Shown here: positions 1,397 to 44,189 of the stretch, in pieces
How positions within the stretch are numbered: the first letter of the stretch is position 1
Layout: every line of letters starts with the position of its first letter
Sequence record: OR896838.1
Strand: one strand, 5' to 3'
DNA length: 44,740 nucleotides
Source of the DNA: Escherichia phage McMelon
Program-made: the position numbers and the translations under genes
The notes under the pieces: model-generated
What the model was told of the DNA's origin: nothing
Seen by the model: only the letters and a program-made list of their open reading frames with translations
Database searches by the model: none

Positions 1397-2917
1397 ATGA
1401 CCGTTAACGTTGACAACCAGCACCCACTCTATGCGCGCATCGCGCAGGAATGGAAGATGATCCGGGATTGTGTAGCAGGGGAGCGCGCCGTGAAGGCGTG
1501 CGGCCCTTTGTACCTGCCACACCCCGCCAGCGGCGACAATACCGACCCGAAAGCACGGGCGCGATATAAGGCGTATAAGCAACGTGCTGTATTCCTGAAC
1601 GCCACCGCACGTACACTTAACGCGCTGTTAGGCGTGGCCTTCGCTAAGCCGGTAAGTCTCGACCTTTCCGGGGCGATGGCTGACCTGATTGATGACGTTG
1701 ACGGCAGCGGTATGCCACTGCCGCAACTACTGCGCGGTGCTATGTCGGAAGTGCTGCAATCGGGCCGCGCGGGCTTTATGGTGGACTACGACCGCCAGGC
1801 TAACTTTGATGAACTGGGTAACGTAGTGCCGCAGACCGCCGCCGAGATGGCGTCGCACCGCCCGCTTATCCGCCTGTATACGGCAGAACAGATCATCAAC
1901 TGGCGGCAGACCCACGGCGTTGATACGCTAATTGTGCTGAAGGAAACGGACGAAATCAGCACCGAAGACCCGGACGACTTCGCAAACCACGAAGTAACAA
2001 TCTGGACCGAGCTTCGCATGATTAACGGTGCGGCACACGCCCGCCGCTGGTACTACAACGCGGACACGTCCGAGGTGCAAATGGATTTGCCGCGTGGATT
2101 CACCCGCACCGACCTGGTGCCGCTGGTGGATGCCTCCGGTAATGCGCTTACACAACTTCCGTTTTGCTGGTGTGGTGCGGTGGACAACAACGCAACGCCT
2201 GACGCCGCTCCGCTGGCGGATATCGCATCCATCAACATTAAGCACTACAACGCCGAAGCGGATGTCGCCGAGATTGCGCACATCGTGGGTCAGCCTACTC
2301 TGGTGGCAACTGGCTTGACTCAATCATGGGCGGACAAAAACCTGAAGGGCGGCATTGCCCTCGGTGCGACTAAGGGCGTTATCCTGGGCCAGAACATGGA
2401 CGCTAAACTGATCCAGGCGGAGGAGCGCAACTTGTCGGTTGCACTGTGTGAGCGTCGCGAATTGCAAATGGCTAAACTTGGTGCGGCCCTGGTTGAGAAG
2501 GGGACTGCACCTAAGACGGCAACTGAAGCGGCCTACGATGCGCAGACTGATAACAGTATCCTGTCGCTTATTGCCGGTAACGTTGAGAAGGCTTTCAACC
2601 GCGCGTTGCAAATCGTCCAGCTATTCACGGGAGACACCGCCGACCAACGCGTAACGCTGAACAAGTTCTACACCGAAATCACGGTTGATGCGCAGCTTAT
2701 GACCGCGATGATGTCGGGGGTGCAGACTGGCACGGTCCGCCTGGCTGACTTCATCAAGTGGATGATGGCGCAGGGCGTCATCGACGACTCGCAAACCGTC
2801 GAGCAGGTGGAAGACGAATTGCGAAATCAGAATCCATTGCCTCAAATGTCCCCTGATGCGGTAGAATCTACCGAAGAAGACCCGGACAAGGTAGCGGACA
2901 ATGGCGAAGACAATTAA
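1397..2917 (+). CDS. portal protein
   Basis: 506 aa ORF immediately after TerL, RBS AAGGAAA before ATG, acidic C-terminus; assigned by size and synteny. Confidence 0.75.
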   Translation: MTVNVDNQHPLYARIAQEWKMIRDCVAGERAVKACGPLYLPHPASGDNTDPKARARYKAYKQRAVFLNATARTLNALLGVAFAKPVSLDLSGAMADLIDDVDGSGMPLPQLLRGAMSEVLQSGRAGFMVDYDRQANFDELGNVVPQTAAEMASHRPLIRLYTAEQIINWRQTHGVDTLIVLKETDEISTEDPDDFANHEVTIWTELRMINGAAHARRWYYNADTSEVQMDLPRGFTRTDLVPLVDASGNALTQLPFCWCGAVDNNATPDAAPLADIASINIKHYNAEADVAEIAHIVGQPTLVATGLTQSWADKNLKGGIALGATKGVILGQNMDAKLIQAEERNLSVALCERRELQMAKLGAALVEKGTAPKTATEAAYDAQTDNSILSLIAGNVEKAFNRALQIVQLFTGDTADQRVTLNKFYTEITVDAQLMTAMMSGVQTGTVRLADFIKWMMAQGVIDDSQTVEQVEDELRNQNPLPQMSPDAVESTEEDPDKVADNGEDN

Positions 2918-4004
2918 TCAATATATGGCGGATCGAATGATTCGCCGTCACATCTTCACCCAGCGCCTGAGCAATGACCAGGCGCGACGGGTGCTGGCTA
3001 TGTGGGAGAAGTTCCGGCCCACTTTACTTGGTAAGCTGACCGAGTTACTTGATGGCAAAAAGTCCATGAGCAACAAGGCACTTACCACACTGTTAACTCA
3101 AATCGACAAGACCGTCAAAACGGAACTGCGCGCAGAGTTTAAAGTGCTGGCGGAGAGCCTTCAGGAGTTCGCCGACACCGAGGCTGATTATCTCGCGGAC
3201 ACATTAACGGCAGCGATCCAGCCCGCGGTCGCTGTGCCTGCGGTCGAAGTAGTGGGCGTTGTGACCGGCGCGCAGATTGCAGCGACTGCAATGAAAAACC
3301 CGTTCCAGGGGAACACCATGATGCAATGGCCTGATTCACTTTCCGAGTGGACCAGGACGCAGATCGGCAATCAGGTGCGCGCTGGATTCATCCAGGGCAA
3401 GCCGACTATGGAAATTATTGCGGACGTGAGGCGCGCGCTCGGCGGTCGAAGTGCGCAAGCTATCTCAAGCGTTGTTAAGTCCGCGGTCAACCACTATGCG
3501 GCGACCGCCCGCGAACTAATGGTAAAAGCAAATGACGATATTCTCGAAGGTCGCCAATGGTTGGCTACATTGGACACGCATACTTCTCCCATGTGCCAGC
3601 TACGCGATCGCCTGTTTTATCCGGTTGATGTTACTCCCGACACCAAAGGAAAGCGCGGCGGGAAAGTGGTGGCGGGGTCACAATATGGCGCTGGTCCGGG
3701 CAAGCTGCATTATTGCTGCCGTTCGACGGAGACGTGGAAAGTCAAAGGTATGGAAGATTGGCCCAGTGGTAAGCGTCCGGCACTGAAGGCTGACGCGGGC
3801 AGATTGCTGAGCGAGCAGGTCGACGCGCAGACTGATTTCTTCTCATGGGTGCAGCGCCAGCCGCGCCATATTCTGGAAGAATTATACGGAGTGCAACGCG
3901 CCGACCAGATTATGCGCGGAGTGAAAGTGCCGAAGATGTTCACCGATTCCGGCGAACTAATGACTATCGCACAGCTTAAAAACCGGGGGTTATGGCGTGA
4001 TTAA
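2901..4004 (+). CDS. head morphogenesis protein (SPP1 gp7 / Mu F-like)
   Basis: 367 aa; conserved LDTHTSPMCQ...GK-type motif; sits between portal and scaffold; overlaps portal 3' end. Confidence 0.7.
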   Translation: MAKTINQYMADRMIRRHIFTQRLSNDQARRVLAMWEKFRPTLLGKLTELLDGKKSMSNKALTTLLTQIDKTVKTELRAEFKVLAESLQEFADTEADYLADTLTAAIQPAVAVPAVEVVGVVTGAQIAATAMKNPFQGNTMMQWPDSLSEWTRTQIGNQVRAGFIQGKPTMEIIADVRRALGGRSAQAISSVVKSAVNHYAATARELMVKANDDILEGRQWLATLDTHTSPMCQLRDRLFYPVDVTPDTKGKRGGKVVAGSQYGAGPGKLHYCCRSTETWKVKGMEDWPSGKRPALKADAGRLLSEQVDAQTDFFSWVQRQPRHILEELYGVQRADQIMRGVKVPKMFTDSGELMTIAQLKNRGLWRD

Positions 4005-4326
4005 ATATGCAGCGATTGGACTGGTTATCGGTCTGGCGGTAGGATTCTGGCTAGGCGACTCCTATCGTACTGGCGTAGTGGCGGAGGCGGCGCAAGAAGC
4101 GCAAGCCAAAGCCCAACGGCAGCAAACTAAAGTTGTTGAGCGCTCCGTGCAGGCCGAACAGGCCCGCGACGTAGAATACCGGACTATAACGAAAGAGGTT
4201 GTTAAATATGTTACGCGCCCTAACCGCCCTGATTGTAGTTTTGATGCTGAGCGCGTGCGGATCAAGCAACGTGCCGTTGATGCCGCTAACGGAGTCGGCA
4301 CTGCGACCGCCGTGCAAGTTCGATAG
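3997..4326 (+). CDS. Rz: i-spanin (Rz-like)
   Basis: 109 aa; GTG start overlapping upstream stop; N-terminal TM helix (IGLVIGLAVGFWLG) then Q/A/E-rich helical region; Rz1-like ORF overlaps its 3' end in +1 frame. Confidence 0.6.
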   Translation: MIKYAAIGLVIGLAVGFWLGDSYRTGVVAEAAQEAQAKAQRQQTKVVERSVQAEQARDVEYRTITKEVVKYVTRPNRPDCSFDAERVRIKQRAVDAANGVGTATAVQVR

Positions 4327-4438
4327 CCCGTCCGCAGACCCCGACGAAGACTTGCTGGTCGATGTTAAGAATATGGAATGTGGTGCGAAGCTGAGGGCGC
4401 AAGTGCTGGAGTTGCAGAAAATAATTCGGGGGCCGTGA
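4208..4438 (+). CDS. Rz1: o-spanin (Rz1-like outer-membrane lipoprotein)
   Basis: Signal peptide with lipobox LSAC, Pro-rich mature region with second Cys; begins inside the Rz-like ORF in another frame and extends past it; RBS AAGAGG upstream of ATG. Confidence 0.6.
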   Translation: MLRALTALIVVLMLSACGSSNVPLMPLTESALRPPCKFDSPSADPDEDLLVDVKNMECGAKLRAQVLELQKIIRGP

Positions 4439-4452
4439 TGGCCCCCTTTTTG
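4427..4452. terminator. rho-independent terminator (likely bidirectional, between convergent genes)
   Basis: GGGGGCC-gtgat-GGCCCCC hairpin followed by TTTTT; the minus-strand gene stop lies at 4453. Confidence 0.7.
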
Positions 4453-5217
4453 TTAGCGCGGAATACCGCAGATTTCGTTTAACGTCTTAACATCCAGCGC
4501 CACCGCCGTGGATTTAGGCTTGTCCGGGTATGGAATGAACTGTTCCACTTCAGGCCACGCCTTGATCAGCTTCTTATCGGTATTGTGCATATCCAGCACG
4601 CCGGTAACGGTTAGTTTGAACGCGTCATACTTAGCTCGCAACTCGCGTCGGGCCTTGTCATTACGGTCCAGGCGCTTGCAGAAGTCGTGATTCGCCGGGT
4701 AGTCTATACGACCGCGTGGCATATATATCGGCAGCGCTTTTCCGTCATCGTCCAATTCGCACACTGACGCTAACAAAATTTCCTCACACCCAGGCACAAT
4801 ATCGCCGAGATCGGGAGACAGCTTATTCATGTATTTATATTCCCAGTATCCGCGATGTACTCGGAATCGGTGTCCGTCTCCGCTCAATGACACGGTACGG
4901 ACGTTTCCGCCGGCGTTGATTTCGAAAGTGGCGTCATAAACGCGGCCGATACCATACGGGCGGTCAGCGTTATAACTATACGTCGCCTTGTTGGTGTATA
5001 CGCTTACTCCGTACATCTGCGACGGGTCATCGCCGATTGCTTTAATGCGCGCGAGTAGCTCGGCGAAAGTGCGAATGCCTTCCGGCATACAGTCCAGCGT
5101 AATGGCGTACGCAAGGTCGCGAGAGTCCATCATGATGGATTTGGCTTCGGTCGCGATTTCATGGTCGCGCAGGATGTTAGCCAGAATCTGGTTTTTAATG
5201 TCTTTTGTCAGTCTCAT
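4453..5217 (-). CDS. hypothetical protein (orphan reverse-strand gene in structural module)
   Basis: 254 aa from the internal ATG (MRLTKD...) with RBS GAGGA 8 nt upstream; the longer track ORF upstream is an S/A/R-rich antisense shadow of the scaffold gene; no recognisable domain. Confidence 0.55.
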   Translation of the reverse strand: MRLTKDIKNQILANILRDHEIATEAKSIMMDSRDLAYAITLDCMPEGIRTFAELLARIKAIGDDPSQMYGVSVYTNKATYSYNADRPYGIGRVYDATFEINAGGNVRTVSLSGDGHRFRVHRGYWEYKYMNKLSPDLGDIVPGCEEILLASVCELDDDGKALPIYMPRGRIDYPANHDFCKRLDRNDKARRELRAKYDAFKLTVTGVLDMHNTDKKLIKAWPEVEQFIPYPDKPKSTAVALDVKTLNEICGIPR

Positions 5218-5246
5218 TTTTATGTCCTCGTTGTTGGTGTGCAACC

Positions 5247-5275
5247 AATATATGCAACCAATACGCGGATTGCAA
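5247..5275 (-). promoter_or_regulatory. sigma70-like promoter (TTGCAA-17-TATATT) for 4453..5217
   Basis: Minus-strand reading: TTGCAA, 17-nt spacer, TATATT, then GGTTGCACACCAACA and RBS; same -10 and downstream 21-mer as the promoter at 39364..39392. Confidence 0.45.
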
Positions 5276-5282
5276 GCGAATT

Positions 5283-5310
5283 TTGCGATTATTTTTATCA
5301 CTGATAATAT
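5283..5310 (+). promoter_or_regulatory. candidate sigma70 promoter for scaffold/capsid genes
   Basis: TTGCGA-16 nt-TAATAT upstream of the scaffold gene. Confidence 0.3.
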
Positions 5311-5365
5311 TAGAGGCGTGAAGTCGAGCGGGTGGCCCGCTCTGCCACAATCCCAGGGGGATAGC

Positions 5366-6067
5366 ATGAAACTTACTAAAGCAGAATATGACGCGTTGCC
5401 GGAAGGTATGAAGGCGCTTTTTGTTGCCGATGGTGACGGGTATAAATCAACGTTCATGACCGCAGAAGAAGTACAGGCGGAGATCAAGGGTCTGAAAGAC
5501 AACAACGCGAAGCTGGTGAGCGAGAAGAAAGCAGAAGCTGAACGTCGCGCCGAAGCCGAGCGCCTTGCGAAAGAGAAAGAGGAAGCCGCCGCGCGCAAAA
5601 ATGGCGACCTCGAAGCGATCGACAAGTCTTGGAAAGATAAGTTTGCGAAACACGAAGCAGACACATCGGGAAAAATCGAAGCCTATCGCAAGCAGATCCA
5701 CGATCTAACCATCGGCAGCGCGGCCAAAGACCTGGCGTCGAAGCTGTTCGGTAAGAATGCGGGCATCATGCAACGCCACGTAATGGACCGCCTGACGCTG
5801 GAAGACGGCGAAGACGGCAGCTTGAAAGTGCGTGTCTTGCAGGATGGCAAACCGTCCGCGCTGACTATGGAAGAGCTTGAAAAAGAGTTCCGTAATAACG
5901 CCGATTTCGCATCCGTCCTGGCTGGCACGCCAGCAGGAGGCGCTCCTAGCAAACCGACGCAGGTTGTCGAAGATGTGAAGTCTAAAATTACGATGGGCCA
6001 TAGCTTCGGTATCACCGATCTCACCAAACAGGCCGGGGATATCATCGCTAAAATGGGCGACGAGTAA
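5366..6067 (+). CDS. scaffolding protein
   Basis: 233 aa, strongly helical E/K/A-rich composition, directly upstream of major capsid gene; internal ATG of track ORF 4988..6067 with RBS GGGGGA. Confidence 0.65.
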   Translation: MKLTKAEYDALPEGMKALFVADGDGYKSTFMTAEEVQAEIKGLKDNNAKLVSEKKAEAERRAEAERLAKEKEEAAARKNGDLEAIDKSWKDKFAKHEADTSGKIEAYRKQIHDLTIGSAAKDLASKLFGKNAGIMQRHVMDRLTLEDGEDGSLKVRVLQDGKPSALTMEELEKEFRNNADFASVLAGTPAGGAPSKPTQVVEDVKSKITMGHSFGITDLTKQAGDIIAKMGDE

Positions 6068-6069
6068 GC

Positions 6070-6098
6070 GGATTGCCCGCGAAAGCGGGCAATTTTGC
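6070..6098 (+). terminator. putative terminator / attenuator
   Basis: ATTGCCCGC-gaaa-GCGGGCAAT hairpin followed by TTTTG. Confidence 0.45.
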
Positions 6099-6164
6099 GA
6101 GCGCGTAAAACTAAGGTAACATTAATGCCACTGGGCGAATGCTCACAACTCAAAGGATTTCGAT

Positions 6165-10828: not shown

Positions 10829-11140
10829 TGAAGCGGGACGTCCCGCTTTGTCCCGCCCTGTAAAACCGCATATCTAATCACTTTCATTGCATAAACTCAA
10901 AGCGGGACAGGCGGGACGTCCCGTTTTGTCCCACCCATGAAATGTGCATACCTATTCGAATTTCGTGCATAAAACAAGCGGGACAGAAAGCGGGACAGAC
11001 AAGGGGCGGGACAAAGCGGGACAGCACCCCGTCCCCGCCAGTGCTGCCGCGGTTTTCAGCCGATCGGGACAAGCGGGACAAAGCCCAGTCTTTCAGACTA
11101 GACGGGGGTCAACGGCCCCCCTCGTCTGAGACTGAATAAG
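10829..11140. repeat. GCGGGACA iteron / palindrome array ending in GC-rich hairpin (copy A)
   Basis: At least 10 copies of GCGGGAC or its complement, including perfect palindrome GCGGGACGTCCCGC (10833..10846); terminal hairpin GACGGGGGTCAACGGCCCCCCTCGTC; about 150 bp nearly identical to 39030..39210. Confidence 0.7.
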
Positions 11141-11157
11141 GTTTGTTTGAAATTCGC

Positions 11158-21046: not shown

Positions 21047-21072
21047 ATAAGCCCCTTTCGGGGCTTATTTGC
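21047..21072. terminator. putative bidirectional terminator
   Basis: AAGCCCC-tttc-GGGGCTT hairpin between convergent genes; T-rich flank. Confidence 0.55.
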
Positions 21073-21283
21073 AGGTTGTGCTTTTGAAGTGGTCAACTGA
21101 CACATACTGGAAGTTAAACGGGTAGCCAGCCCTAAGCATTTTGTGACCGCTAAAATCTGCTACCCCAAACACGGGGACTGAGTAGTCCAAGCCGCTATTC
21201 TGGTATGTCGCGTCGCAGACTTTAGCTGGCATGTTGGCACAACCGGACAAAAGAACCGCACAAATCATAATTAAAGTTTTCAT
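21065..21283 (-). CDS. small outer-membrane lipoprotein (candidate Cor/Llp-like superinfection exclusion protein)
   Basis: 72 aa from ATG with AGGAGA RBS; signal peptide MKTLIMICAVLLSGC with lipobox; antisense to and embedded among tail fibre genes. Confidence 0.6.
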   Translation of the reverse strand: MKTLIMICAVLLSGCANMPAKVCDATYQNSGLDYSVPVFGVADFSGHKMLRAGYPFNFQYVSVDHFKSTTCK

Positions 21284-38961: not shown

Positions 38962-39029
38962 ATTTTGAGTGTTTTTATCTGGTCGTATTGGTTGCCGTGT
39001 AGTGTAAATATAGTGAATAGTTATGCAGT

Positions 39030-39210
39030 TTTATTGCATAAAGCAAGCGGGACAAAAAGCGGGACAAACAAGGGGCGGGACAAAGCGGGACAGCACCCCT
39101 GTCCCGCCCCGGATGACGCGGCTTCCAGAGGAGCGGGACAGGCGGGACAACTCCCAGTCTTTCAGACTAGACGGGGGTCAATGGCCCCCCTCGTCTGAGA
39201 CTGAATAAAA
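39030..39210. repeat. GCGGGACA iteron / palindrome array ending in GC-rich hairpin (copy B)
   Basis: Near-identical to 10970..11140: same order of GCGGGACA units, GGCGGGAC...GTCCCGCC inverted repeat and terminal hairpin (loop differs by one base). Confidence 0.7.
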
Positions 39211-41254: not shown

Positions 41255-41289
41255 AGTCCCAGTGAGCTAAAACTTACTGGGACTTTTTT
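41255..41289 (+). terminator. rho-independent terminator
   Basis: AGTCCCAGT-loop-ACTGGGACT hairpin followed by TTTTTT. Confidence 0.6.
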
Positions 41290-41580
41290 ATGGATAAGCT
41301 AAACGAGTGGTTATTCGCCCTCGCATGTCTGGCTGGCGGCTTCGTAGGCGCACGCATTCATGGCGAGGCTACGAAGGGGTCGCTAAACTTCGTTTTGTAT
41401 GTTGTAGTTGGCTTCCTGTGTGCCATATTTGGCGCACCGGCTATTGCCGAGTGGGCTGGTTTGTCGGGGGAGCGCACTGTCGCCGGTTTGGGCTTCGTAA
41501 CCGCAATCTTCTGGATGCCAATCGCCGACCGGATCAGGGAGACTATTGCGTCGTTCCGACTTCCGGGGGGTGCAAAATGA
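41290..41580 (+). CDS. holin-like membrane protein (3 predicted TM helices)
   Basis: 96 aa; three hydrophobic segments, charged C-terminus; precedes second membrane protein and lysozyme; ATG abuts terminator T-run with no SD. Confidence 0.4.
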   Translation: MDKLNEWLFALACLAGGFVGARIHGEATKGSLNFVLYVVVGFLCAIFGAPAIAEWAGLSGERTVAGLGFVTAIFWMPIADRIRETIASFRLPGGAK

Positions 41581-41822
41581 TTATCTCCGTCCTGTTGTTT
41601 GTTATCATCGGGGCTTCGTCCCTGTTTAACGTGTATGCGCCGTCCGTCCGGGATGGCATTTTCGGTCGGGTGCTGTATCTGTTAACGGCAATGGTCTGTA
41701 TTATCGGATTGTTGCAAACAGGAGACGTATCAGATGCCACCTGGACCGCGTTAATCTGGCTGTTTGCATTGCGCACCCTGCGTAATGCTGTTTTGAATGG
41801 GGTAAAACATGCGATTCAGTGA
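41577..41822 (+). CDS. holin/antiholin-like membrane protein
   Basis: 81 aa, 2-3 hydrophobic helices; ATG overlaps upstream stop; overlaps lysozyme start. Confidence 0.45.
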   Translation: MIISVLLFVIIGASSLFNVYAPSVRDGIFGRVLYLLTAMVCIIGLLQTGDVSDATWTALIWLFALRTLRNAVLNGVKHAIQ

Positions 41823-42300
41823 CAACGGTCTAAGATTCACGGCAGCATGGGAGGCTTTCAGCCCGGTGCCGTATTTCGCGACCAAGAAAGAGCAGGCCCG
41901 CGGCCTGTACACCTGGGGTTATGGTCATACCGGCACTAATCCGCCTCGAAGCATTACCCGCGAGGAAGCGCTGGCACTGCTCAAGCGCGATGTGGCGTAT
42001 GCTGAGGACTGGGTGAACAAATACGCACATCCGAGCATTAACCAGGCGCAATTCGACGCGCTGGTGGACCTGGTAATCAACGCCGGTCCGGGTCCGATCG
42101 TACCGGATGACGTCGCGAATGATTTCGATGATGCGGTCCGCCTGGGCGACTGGGCGAAGGTACGTGCTACTCTGCCGCAGTTCCGCAAGCAAGGTGGCGA
42201 AGTGCTTAAGGGTCTGGTGCGCCGTGCAATCGGCAGACAGGCGTTGTTTGATGGTAAGCAGTGGGACGTTGCCGAACGAATCGGTCGTAACGCTGCATAA
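41809..42300 (+). CDS. endolysin (phage lysozyme, GH24-like)
   Basis: 163 aa; N-terminal catalytic-region pattern typical of phage lysozymes (WEAF...GLYTWGYGHT), conserved ALVDLVINAG. Confidence 0.8.
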   Translation: MRFSDNGLRFTAAWEAFSPVPYFATKKEQARGLYTWGYGHTGTNPPRSITREEALALLKRDVAYAEDWVNKYAHPSINQAQFDALVDLVINAGPGPIVPDDVANDFDDAVRLGDWAKVRATLPQFRKQGGEVLKGLVRRAIGRQALFDGKQWDVAERIGRNAA

Positions 42301-42316
42301 TACGAGGTGACACGAT

Positions 42317-42484
42317 ATGTTAAAAAGTATTCTTGATCATAATGCGGACGCGCTTGCCGCACTGGCTAAAACCGAAGACCCAGGCGCACGCGCTATCATC
42401 GCGGACTCTATCAACCACGCCGGGGTCTTCGATGCGAAGCTGCCAAGCCCACCACCGCAGGAGGAATCTGACCCCGCAGCGTAA
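42317..42484 (+). CDS. small hypothetical protein
   Basis: 55 aa ORF below track threshold with RBS GAGGTG; acidic, Pro-rich C-terminus. Confidence 0.35.
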   Translation: MLKSILDHNADALAALAKTEDPGARAIIADSINHAGVFDAKLPSPPPQEESDPAA

Positions 42485-42489
42485 ACAAT

Positions 42490-42517
42490 TAAGCCCGGAA
42501 TTAACCGGGCTTTTTAT
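42490..42517 (+). terminator. rho-independent terminator
   Basis: AAGCCCGG-aattaa-CCGGGCTT hairpin followed by TTTTATT. Confidence 0.7.
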
Positions 42518-44079: not shown

Positions 44080-44107
44080 TAGCCCGCCGATTTGGTGGGC
44101 TTTTTTG
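44080..44107 (+). terminator. rho-independent terminator
   Basis: AGCCCGCC-gatttg-GTGGGCT hairpin (one G-T wobble) followed by TTTTTT. Confidence 0.65.
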
Positions 44108-44120: not shown

Positions 44121-44189
44121 CCCCTTAGATGGCAGGGCCGTCTCTTATGTTGCCGATGGTCGGCGCATATGCACAAAAGGGCTTATATC

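Follow-up and report, generated by a model that had tools for sequence, protein, structure and literature searches.

As was catalogued by Kongari et al. 2018 (PMC6139136), the gene pairs of the phages HK578, EK99P-1, EP23, JL1, SSL-2009a, and SO-1 are curated as overlapped spanins. In HK578, the two genes lie at 4570..4899 and 4781..5011, share a 119-bp overlap, and are assigned to the 'Jersey' overlapped family, whose o-spanins have two constant cysteines (PMC6139136). The two-component spanin genes of T4, PseT.3 and PseT.2, are not near the genes for the holin (t) or endolysin (e) (Kongari et al. 2018, Fig. 8 legend, PMC6139136), and the paper on the Dhillonvirus P78 names two holins and an endolysin, plus an Rz-like spanin located at a distance (PMC12677095). 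The window analyzed here, a stretch of 44,740 nucleotides from Escherichia phage McMelon (OR896838.1), is a complete genome of a Dhillonvirus (HK578-like coliphage) opened at terL, and its circular junction is real, with base 1 completing the stop codon of terS (start at 44169). Judged from sequence, the pair of ORFs at 3997..4326 and 4208..4438 very probably constitutes a two-component spanin of the Dhillonvirus with this 'overlapped' architecture, belonging to the 'Jersey' i- and o-spanin families. For the genus and its relatives, the gene pair had already been catalogued, as had its location among the head genes, and RefSeq records carry the label 'Rz-like spanin' at the matching position; the assignment is correct but ordinary.

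Both of the ORFs that the initial annotation had described as Rz-like and Rz1-like were recovered at these positions. The i-spanin gene (3997..4326, + strand) has a GTG start and encodes 109 aa, in which residues ~4–20 are the sole strongly hydrophobic stretch (KD15 maximum of 2.3 in a hydropathy calculation), with K3 before and D21/R24 after, in agreement with the N-terminal transmembrane (TM) helix proposed for the protein. The other 87 residues are polar and charged and include one cysteine (C80), which is kept in 16 of the 16 Dhillonvirus sequences. A single-sequence AlphaFold2 model of low confidence (mean pLDDT of 58) places helices at residues 3–72 and 84–97 and a coil at 73–83, which is compatible with the two linked helices predicted for i-spanins of the family and lends weak support to a helical periplasmic domain. 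Most relatives have an in-frame start 10 codons earlier, but the window and the loci L015 and L018 lack it; GTG 3997 was therefore kept as the start, as annotated in HK578 and given in the Kongari supplement.

The o-spanin gene (4208..4438, + strand) begins 211 nt after the i-spanin start (4208 − 3997), which puts it in the +1 frame, and runs 112 nt past the i-spanin gene. The open frame begins at TTG 4199, which was rejected as the start since some relatives have an in-frame TGA between this codon and ATG 4208; the conserved ATG, with an AAGAGG 9 nt upstream, occurs in all 16 Dhillonvirus sequences. The 76-aa precursor has the predicted signal MLRALTALIVVLMLSA followed directly by CGSS, with a lipobox (LSAC) at residues 14–17 that makes Cys17 the predicted lipid-bearing cysteine, and with Gly at the +2 residue rather than Asp, the inner-membrane retention residue. 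The mature protein of 60 aa contains seven prolines and two further cysteines (Cys36 and Cys58), both of which, along with the lipobox, are kept in 16/16 sequences. The earlier description of a Pro-rich, Rz1-like ORF with an LSAC lipobox in the +1 frame, running past the Rz-like ORF, is therefore upheld. A unimolecular spanin of the T1 gp11 type (N-terminal lipobox and C-terminal TMD) was rejected, as hydropathy indicated no hydrophobic segment at the o-spanin C-terminus.

The 119 nt that the genes share (4208..4326, + strand) form the 3' end of the i-spanin gene and the 5' end of the o-spanin gene, where they encode the signal peptide, the lipobox, and the start of the mature protein. Across the 16 Dhillonvirus sequences used for selection analysis, dN/dS was 0.14 in the i-spanin-only part and 0.10 in the o-spanin-only part, compared with 1.2–4.8 in the other frames of these stretches (4.6–4.8 for the other two frames of the o-spanin-only part). 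Synonymous divergence was 0.11–0.12 within the overlap, in both frames, versus 0.29–0.37 in the flanks, a drop that is expected for dual coding. As estimated from this alignment, both frames are under purifying selection, beyond chance. A competing explanation would accept only the i-spanin-like ORF as a gene and treat the +1-frame lipoprotein ORF as a chance open frame, and it can point to the many GenBank/RefSeq records in which the o-spanin is unannotated or truncated (none in HK578, 52 aa in EK99P-1, 47 aa in Bas75). Gene callers, however, are biased against overlapping ORFs (Kongari et al. 2018, PMC6139136), which accounts for the absent and short annotations, and a chance frame is at odds with the dN/dS of the non-overlapping part, with the retention of the ATG, Shine-Dalgarno, lipobox, and both downstream cysteines in every Dhillonvirus sequence, and with the persistence of the lipobox ORF in homologues of 36–40% identity. 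This explanation is vanishingly improbable, and the o-spanin ORF is treated below as a gene.

The identification of the pair as spanins, as initially proposed, draws on profile matches, topology signals, close relatives, and the location of distant homologues. The i-spanin matched phrog_2536 ('Rz-like spanin'; E 5e-37) and shares 96% identity with HK578 gp05 ('Rz-like spanin'), and the o-spanin matched the 'Rz-like spanin' PHROGs phrog_5672 (E 4e-26) and phrog_1267 (2e-11). The best-matching o-spanin profile spans the C-terminal half only, without the lipobox. Of 21 related IMG/VR loci, 20 have a TMD/lipobox pair, at identities as low as 36%. Scans of both proteins against Pfam-A and NCBIfam returned nothing at E ≤ 1 above cutoff, the best Pfam E-values (0.15 and 0.28) being to unrelated families. 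Membership in the sequence family of lambda Rz/Rz1 was rejected, as the Pfam-A and NCBIfam profiles fell below cutoff, which makes the pair an analogue of Rz/Rz1 in function, with no homology detectable. The term 'Rz-like' thus stands for function and architecture but not for the sequence family.

Two membrane-targeted proteins could instead serve a role in the envelope outside of lysis, such as superinfection exclusion, head assembly at the membrane, or a moron function. Such a role would suit a pair located in the head module and adjoining a variable slot with unrelated cargo, and no report of experimental work on any member of the Jersey-type spanin family was found in the papers searched. 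Against it, homologues at 36–47% identity come right behind endolysins in lysis cassettes of the ordinary kind, the genome is otherwise without any spanin, and the role of exclusion lipoprotein is already taken by Cor (21065..21283). The pair is also part of the conserved backbone rather than of the variable slot, as it is kept in all Dhillonvirus examined and collinear in at least 139 records, with homology to HK578 breaking only after the terminator. A role outside of lysis is thus very improbable, and the assignment as spanins is carried forward.

The rest of the lysis system was located where it had been placed initially, with two holin genes (41290..41580 and 41577..41822) matching PHROG holin families (2359 and 2508 for the two holins) and a lysozyme-type endolysin gene (41809..42300; phrog_7), all on the + strand. 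The separation of about 7 kb across the circular junction was likewise confirmed, the i-spanin start lying 6436 nt beyond the lysozyme stop and 7447 nt beyond the start of the first holin gene. Holins, endolysin, and spanins do not form a contiguous cassette; eight genes occupy the gap of 6436 nt between the lysozyme stop and the i-spanin start, including a 55-aa ORF, an exonuclease, a 70-aa ORF, terS, terL, portal, and head morphogenesis. The holins, the endolysin, and the 55-aa ORF are flanked by terminator-like hairpins (41255-41284 and 42491-42512). No second spanin pair adjoins the lysozyme, where the presence of one had been named as counting against the assignment: the 55-aa ORF that follows it (42317..42484; phrog_11068, unknown function) was rejected as a spanin, having neither a TM segment nor a lipobox. 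Besides the o-spanin and Cor, a genome-wide lipobox scan picked up just one ORF, a spurious one within the DNA polymerase gene. The lipoprotein at 21065..21283 was rejected as an o- or u-spanin, given its match to the Cor exclusion lipoprotein of NCBIfam (E 9e-16) and its location between tail genes.

Upstream, the head-morphogenesis gene (2901..4004, + strand, 367 aa) and the i-spanin gene share 8 nt at their stop and start (3997..4004, + strand, GTGATTAA), and this overlap and the GGGG(G) upstream of it are invariant in 16/16 Dhillonvirus sequences. Translational coupling and co-transcription would be expected to leave an overlap of this kind. Downstream, a bidirectional intrinsic-terminator-like hairpin (4428..4446, both strands; GGGGGCC-GTGAT-GGCCCCC, with T-runs on each strand) holds the o-spanin stop TGA in its loop and uses the last three codons as its 5' arm, with a predicted RNA fold of -18.5 kcal/mol (z -2.6). 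The hairpin is kept in 16 of 16 sequences, and terminators are annotated in HK578; terminator scans overall were not enriched over shuffles. Homology to HK578 breaks at 4450, just past the hairpin, and the slot after the terminator is variable, holding the Nmad5 gene (4453..5217, minus strand) in the window and a different, unrelated gene in HK578. The initial placement of the pair between the head morphogenesis and scaffold genes was correct as to order, yet the minus-strand Nmad5 gene and the bidirectional terminator intervene before the scaffold gene (5366..6067).

Co-expression of the spanins with the head genes is plausible, given the 8-nt overlap at the front of the pair and the terminator behind it. 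A scan for sigma-70 promoters near the pair returned none that was convincing and was not enriched over shuffles, though it was crude and phage-specific late promoters would escape it. Alternatively, a single long rightward late transcript, starting upstream of the holins, might read through the hairpins at 42491-42512 and 44081-44101 to the spanins, in which case the lysis genes would still be effectively co-transcribed and not governed by head-gene transcription as such. From ~36282 up to and including the spanins, every gene (holins, endolysin, terS, terL, portal, and head morphogenesis among them) is on the + strand, and no sigma-70-like promoter better than 9/12 occurs between the lysozyme and the spanins, as such a transcript would have it. 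The promoter result is tempered by the blindness of the scan to late promoters specific to the phage, and three good terminator-like hairpins with T-runs (41255-41284, 42491-42512, and 44081-44101) lie between or at the borders of the cassettes. A long transcript, which would alter only the regulation of the pair, is rather unlikely, and co-expression with the head genes is the reading retained.

By analogy with the lambda Rz/Rz1 paradigm, the N-terminal helix of the 109-aa i-spanin would anchor the protein in the inner membrane, with a largely helical domain reaching into the periplasm. The 76-aa o-spanin precursor would receive its lipid at Cys17 and be cut by signal peptidase II; since it has no Asp at +2, its destination should be the inner leaflet of the outer membrane. 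The two proteins could then bind each other through their C-terminal parts to form complexes that cross the periplasm through the peptidoglycan mesh, probably as covalent homodimers via the conserved periplasmic cysteines (C80 of the i-spanin; C36 and C58 of the o-spanin), and these would build up harmlessly in late infection. Triggering of the holins (41290..41822) and destruction of the peptidoglycan by the lysozyme (41809..42300) would then free the complexes to fuse the inner and outer membranes, and the final obstacle to phage release would be gone. Because lysis timing is not set by spanins, they should need only late synthesis, not adjacency to the holin genes. In this lineage they probably make up the last two cistrons of a terS-terL-portal-head morphogenesis unit, with translational coupling to the head-morphogenesis gene and a strong terminator after them.

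The split lysis cassette had been described as uncommon, which holds among phages generally but not within the Dhillonvirus, where it is the rule, nor in the Guernseyvirinae-type genomes examined, all three of which have it. The arrangement is already annotated in public records and is not a new observation; as for explicit analysis of the head-module position, the Dhillonvirus and Jerseyvirus literature yielded only gene lists and annotations. As homologues sit after endolysins elsewhere, the head-module position is seen as a derived feature of the Dhillonvirus/Guernseyvirinae lineage. It is possible to view this position as functional rather than a historical accident, with coupling and the terminator tying spanin dosage and timing to particle assembly, independent of the holin-endolysin unit with its own terminator, though this view is quite improbable. 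If true, the outer membrane would be breakable only once the packaging and head genes were fully expressed, and the persistence of the arrangement from Dhillonvirus to Guernseyvirinae would be explained. Beyond correct annotation, the pair has little significance. It completes the lysis system of the phage, which is relevant to Dhillonvirus engineering and to the 'complete lysis module' of therapeutic candidates, and it illustrates two known points: spanin genes need no linkage to holin and endolysin genes, and gene callers often overlook or shorten o-spanin genes that overlap, with several RefSeq records of Dhillonvirus affected (C-terminal half, without the lipobox).

Compared with the described systems, the pair is closest to HK578 gp05 and its o-spanin, which with the pairs of EK99P-1, EP23, JL1, SSL-2009a, and SO-1 form the short subfamily of the 'Jersey' overlapped families (PMC6139136). 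The HK578 genes have identical lengths (109 aa and 76 aa), the same GTG start with GGGGG upstream, and the same 119-bp overlap; they too follow the head-morphogenesis gene immediately and precede a terminator. Within the pair, the differences from HK578 (of which L007 is the IMG/VR copy) are limited to strain-level substitutions, at ~94% nucleotide identity for the pair and ~91% over the surrounding 4.4 kb aligned; beyond the terminator, HK578 has another cargo gene. The Guernseyvirinae members compared (Jerseyvirus, Cornellvirus, and Kagunavirus-like; f18SE gp34, Shemara gp09/gp10, and Bas75_0008/0009) have spanins of the same family, with ~55–60% identity over i-spanin residues 64–100, and the same order of holin-holin-endolysin ... 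terS-terL-portal-head morphogenesis ... spanins ... scaffold-major capsid. Their i-spanins are longer (119–128 aa), the overlap in Shemara is only 8 nt (the 'separated' class), and between the pair and the head-morphogenesis gene lie one to three additional genes, partly on the opposite strand, so that start/stop coupling to the head-morphogenesis gene does not occur. The prophage-like homologues (IMG/VR L021-L025 and Klebsiella phage ST13-OXA48phi12.5) belong to the same i-spanin family at 36–51% identity, with an ITKEVVKY / RTITRDVVKY motif, a Cys after the motif, and an overlapping or embedded lipobox ORF. Unlike the pair in the window, they immediately follow the endolysin within ordinary lysis cassettes (holin-holin-endolysin-spanins-terminase in L021 and L022; similar in L023-L025 and the Klebsiella prophage L004). 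Lambda Rz/Rz1 likewise pair a type II inner-membrane protein with a small outer-membrane lipoprotein in the +1 frame, have periplasmic cysteines, and act after the holin and endolysin, but sequence similarity is undetectable (Pfam, NCBIfam), Rz1 is fully embedded in Rz whereas the o-spanin gene here overlaps and extends past the i-spanin gene, and the lambda pair ends a contiguous S-R-Rz/Rz1 cassette. T4 PseT.3/PseT.2 belong to an unrelated family with separated (non-overlapping) genes, and the holin and endolysin genes of T4 are unlinked from each other, whereas in the window these two functions remain together.

The window covers a whole Dhillonvirus genome, that of a virulent, HK578-like E. 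coli siphophage. A megablast query with positions 2900..6100 returned 158 phage records at 80–99% identity, nearly all Escherichia/Shigella Dhillonviruses, and the full 3.2-kb stretch is collinear in 139 of them; HK578 aligns end to end at ~91% identity. The sequence opens with the terL ATG at base 1, a base that also completes the TAA stop of the terS frame (44169..), so the circular junction used by the initial annotation is genuine.

The proposed Rz-like and Rz1-like ORFs are both present, with the +1 frame, the LSAC lipobox, and the extension of the second ORF past the first. The GTG start of the i-spanin ORF (3997..4326, + strand, 109 aa) and the stop of a 367-aa head-morphogenesis gene (2901..4004, + strand; phrog_241, E 1e-116) share an 8-nt overlap with the motif GTGATTAA. 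The sole hydrophobic segment of the i-spanin covers residues ~4–20, while the other 87 residues are polar and charged, with a single cysteine (C80). The single-sequence AlphaFold2 model (helix 3–72, coil 73–83, helix 84–97; pLDDT 58) is, as weak evidence, compatible with a two-helix i-spanin layout. The o-spanin ORF (4208..4438, + strand, 76 aa), with an ATG start preceded by AAGAGG, lies in the +1 frame of the i-spanin, overlapping it by 119 nt and extending 112 nt beyond it. The frame is open from a TTG at 4199, which was rejected as a start due to the in-frame TGA that several relatives carry between the TTG and the conserved ATG at 4208. The N-terminus, MLRALTALIVVLMLSA followed by CGSS, has the lipobox LSAC with glycine at +2, a textbook example of a predicted lipoprotein signal, and the mature protein would comprise 60 aa with seven prolines and two more cysteines.

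Both frames carry the signature of coding sequence across 16 gap-free Dhillonvirus copies (the window and 15 IMG/VR loci, 80–95% nucleotide identity). The dN/dS was 0.14 in the i-spanin-only part and 0.10 in the o-spanin-only part, compared to 1.2–4.8 in the wrong two frames of the same single-ORF stretches, and synonymous divergence fell to 0.11–0.12 in both frames of the 119-nt overlap from 0.29–0.37 outside, as dual coding predicts. The GTG/stop overlap, the ATG and its Shine-Dalgarno sequence, the lipobox, and all three periplasmic cysteines were kept in all 16 sequences. The length of the i-spanin C-terminus varies, with four of the 15 loci (L011, L016, L017, and L018; 4001..4309) encoding 102 aa and ending in ...DAAN[RG][VI]G[LN], compared to 109 aa ending in ...GVGTATAVQVR in the window; based on these shorter versions, the seven terminal residues (4305..4326), which fall in the overlap, seem dispensable.

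The i-spanin matches the PHROG 'Rz-like spanin' family phrog_2536 (E 5e-37) and the o-spanin matches two families with the same label, phrog_5672 (4e-26) and phrog_1267 (2e-11). Relatives of the i-spanin occur in 666 phage records (tblastn), including ~160 Dhillonviruses at 84–99% identity and ~500 phages of Salmonella, Escherichia, and Klebsiella with <60% identity, chiefly across residues 64–100; from the distant set, one Jerseyvirus, one Cornellvirus, one Kagunavirus-like phage, and one Klebsiella prophage were inspected. More distant IMG/VR homologues (36–47% identity) retain the N-terminal TMD, and an overlapping or embedded lipobox ORF is retained in 20 of 21 IMG/VR loci. These distant homologues sit just downstream of endolysins: two IMG/VR loci (L021 and L022) have the order holin-holin-endolysin-pair-terminase in lambdoid fashion, three others (L023, L024, and L025) have an endolysin immediately upstream, and in the Klebsiella prophage ST13-OXA48phi12.5 the homologue is right behind the holin and lysozyme, downstream of Q. 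Because of this context, together with topology signals and gene architecture, the assignment of the pair as a predicted two-component spanin is secure, and the PHROG matches lend further support to the interpretation first offered for it.

Existing o-spanin annotations are frequently shortened or missing. EK99P-1 gp06 (4881..5039; 52 aa) and Bas75_0009 (5128..5271; 47 aa) both start from an internal methionine and lack the signal peptide and lipobox, and the HK578 record has no o-spanin CDS. The best-matching profile, phrog_5672 (47 positions), aligns only to residues 32–76 of the window o-spanin, so that it appears to have been built from such internal-methionine calls.

The lysis genes had been placed at 41290..42300, and PHROG matches bear this out for a holin (41290..41580, phrog_2359), a second holin (41577..41822, phrog_2508), and a lysozyme (41809..42300, phrog_7), all on the + strand. 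Counted across the junction, 6436 nt separate the lysozyme stop from the pair downstream of it, and from the first holin start the distance is 7447 nt (~7 kb by the original estimate); the intervening genes include the exonuclease, terS, terL, portal, and head-morphogenesis. No second spanin was found, beside the lysozyme or elsewhere, in a six-frame lipoprotein-signal scan of the circularised genome and an inspection of the ORF next to the lysozyme; that ORF (42317..42484, + strand, 55 aa; phrog_11068, function not assigned in PHROG) lacks a TM segment as well as a lipobox. The slot after the endolysin varies, with the 55-aa ORF and a two-way terminator hairpin in the window and a 133-aa 'structural protein with Ig domain' (41655..42056) in HK578. 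The scan yielded three candidates, the o-spanin, a spurious ORF within the DNA polymerase gene, and a 72-aa lipoprotein (21065..21283, − strand; signal MKTLIMICAVLLSG followed by C). The latter, which besides the o-spanin is the genome's one true lipobox ORF, was rejected as a spanin because it matches NCBIfam 'phage exclusion lipoprotein Cor' above cutoff (E 9e-16) and has tail genes on one side and the gene for the lateral tail fibre on the other.

All genes from ~36282 through the spanins are on the + strand, with terminator-like hairpins carrying T-runs just before the first holin (41255–41284), after the 55-aa ORF (42491–42512, both strands), and before terS (44081–44101). Another hairpin (4428–4446, both strands, −18.5 kcal/mol) directly follows the o-spanin ORF; the last three codons (CGG GGG CCG) form its 5' arm and the TGA stop is in the loop. 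It is kept in 16/16 Dhillonvirus sequences and labelled as terminators in the HK578 record. Where relatives have lysine for arginine at o-spanin residue 74, the stem loses one pair (GGGGCC/GGCCCC). Read most simply, these sequence motifs would make the spanins the final two cistrons of a terS-to-head-morphogenesis unit, apart from the holin-endolysin unit, though a read-through transcript starting upstream of the holins may cover them too. In the lambda model, spanins build up in the envelope and are inactive until peptidoglycan is degraded, such that late expression is needed and co-regulation with the holin is not; by this analogy, the distance would pose no mechanistic problem. That coupling to the head genes has adaptive value, an only mildly novel reading, is improbable.

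The placement between the head-morphogenesis and scaffold genes holds, except that the hairpin and a minus-strand gene intervene before the scaffold. This 254-aa Nmad5 (nucleotide modification associated domain 5) gene (4453..5217; Pfam PF18757, E 6e-54; phrog_1965) occupies a variable cargo slot (4451..5231) that separates the spanin terminator from the scaffold gene. HK578 homology ends at 4450 and picks up again at 5232, its slot holding an unrelated 140-aa gene; EK99P-1 has the 254-aa gene and a further one of 53 aa. Elsewhere, two near-identical ~190-bp intergenic elements (~10966..11145 and ~39006..39210), one sited 5' of the tape-measure gene and the other 5' of the small-gene block preceding the lysis genes, each contain 5–7 copies of GCGGGACA followed by a conserved hairpin, AGACGGGGGTCAAYGGCCCCCCTCGTCT. 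The genome total is 17 copies (2.0 expected; 0/100 shuffles reach 17), HK578 has the same two elements, and the arrays could be candidate regulator-binding or iteron-like arrays.

The pair and its position were already on record, and the present analysis confirms the observation. The overlapped Jersey i-/o-spanin families include HK578, EK99P-1, EP23, JL1, SSL-2009a, and SO-1 (Kongari et al. 2018, PMC6139136), with these phages described as the shorter subfamily and two constant cysteines noted in the Jersey o-spanins (PMC6139136). The HK578 i-spanin (4570..4899, 109 aa) and o-spanin (4781..5011, 76 aa; overlap 119 bp) have a geometry identical to the window pair, and their upstream sequence likewise contains GGGGG (PMC6139136 supplement). 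RefSeq labels an 'Rz-like spanin' at the same place in HK578, EK99P-1, slur05, and Gluttony, further records use 'putative o-spanin', 'I-spanin', or 'putative spanin', and in Dhillonvirus P78 (2025) the two holins and endolysin are genes 31–33 and the Rz-like spanin is gene 40 (PMC12677095). The spanin family has been seen in several hundred sequenced phages. The shared order, holin-holin-endolysin ... terS-terL-portal-head morphogenesis ... spanins ... scaffold-major capsid, extends to Jerseyvirus f18SE (spanins between head morphogenesis and scaffold), Cornellvirus Shemara (recorded as i-spanin/o-spanin), and Kagunavirus-like Bas75. The head-module position in every Dhillonvirus and 3/3 Guernseyvirinae-type genomes examined argues that it is an old conserved trait, one that is derived when set against the cassette position seen in more distant homologues. 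Neither protein matched Pfam or NCBIfam profiles, making the pair an analogue of lambda Rz/Rz1 with no homology detectable in those profiles, and its separation from the lysis genes resembles that of the T4 spanin genes pseT.3/pseT.2, the textbook case of unlinked spanins (PMC6139136).
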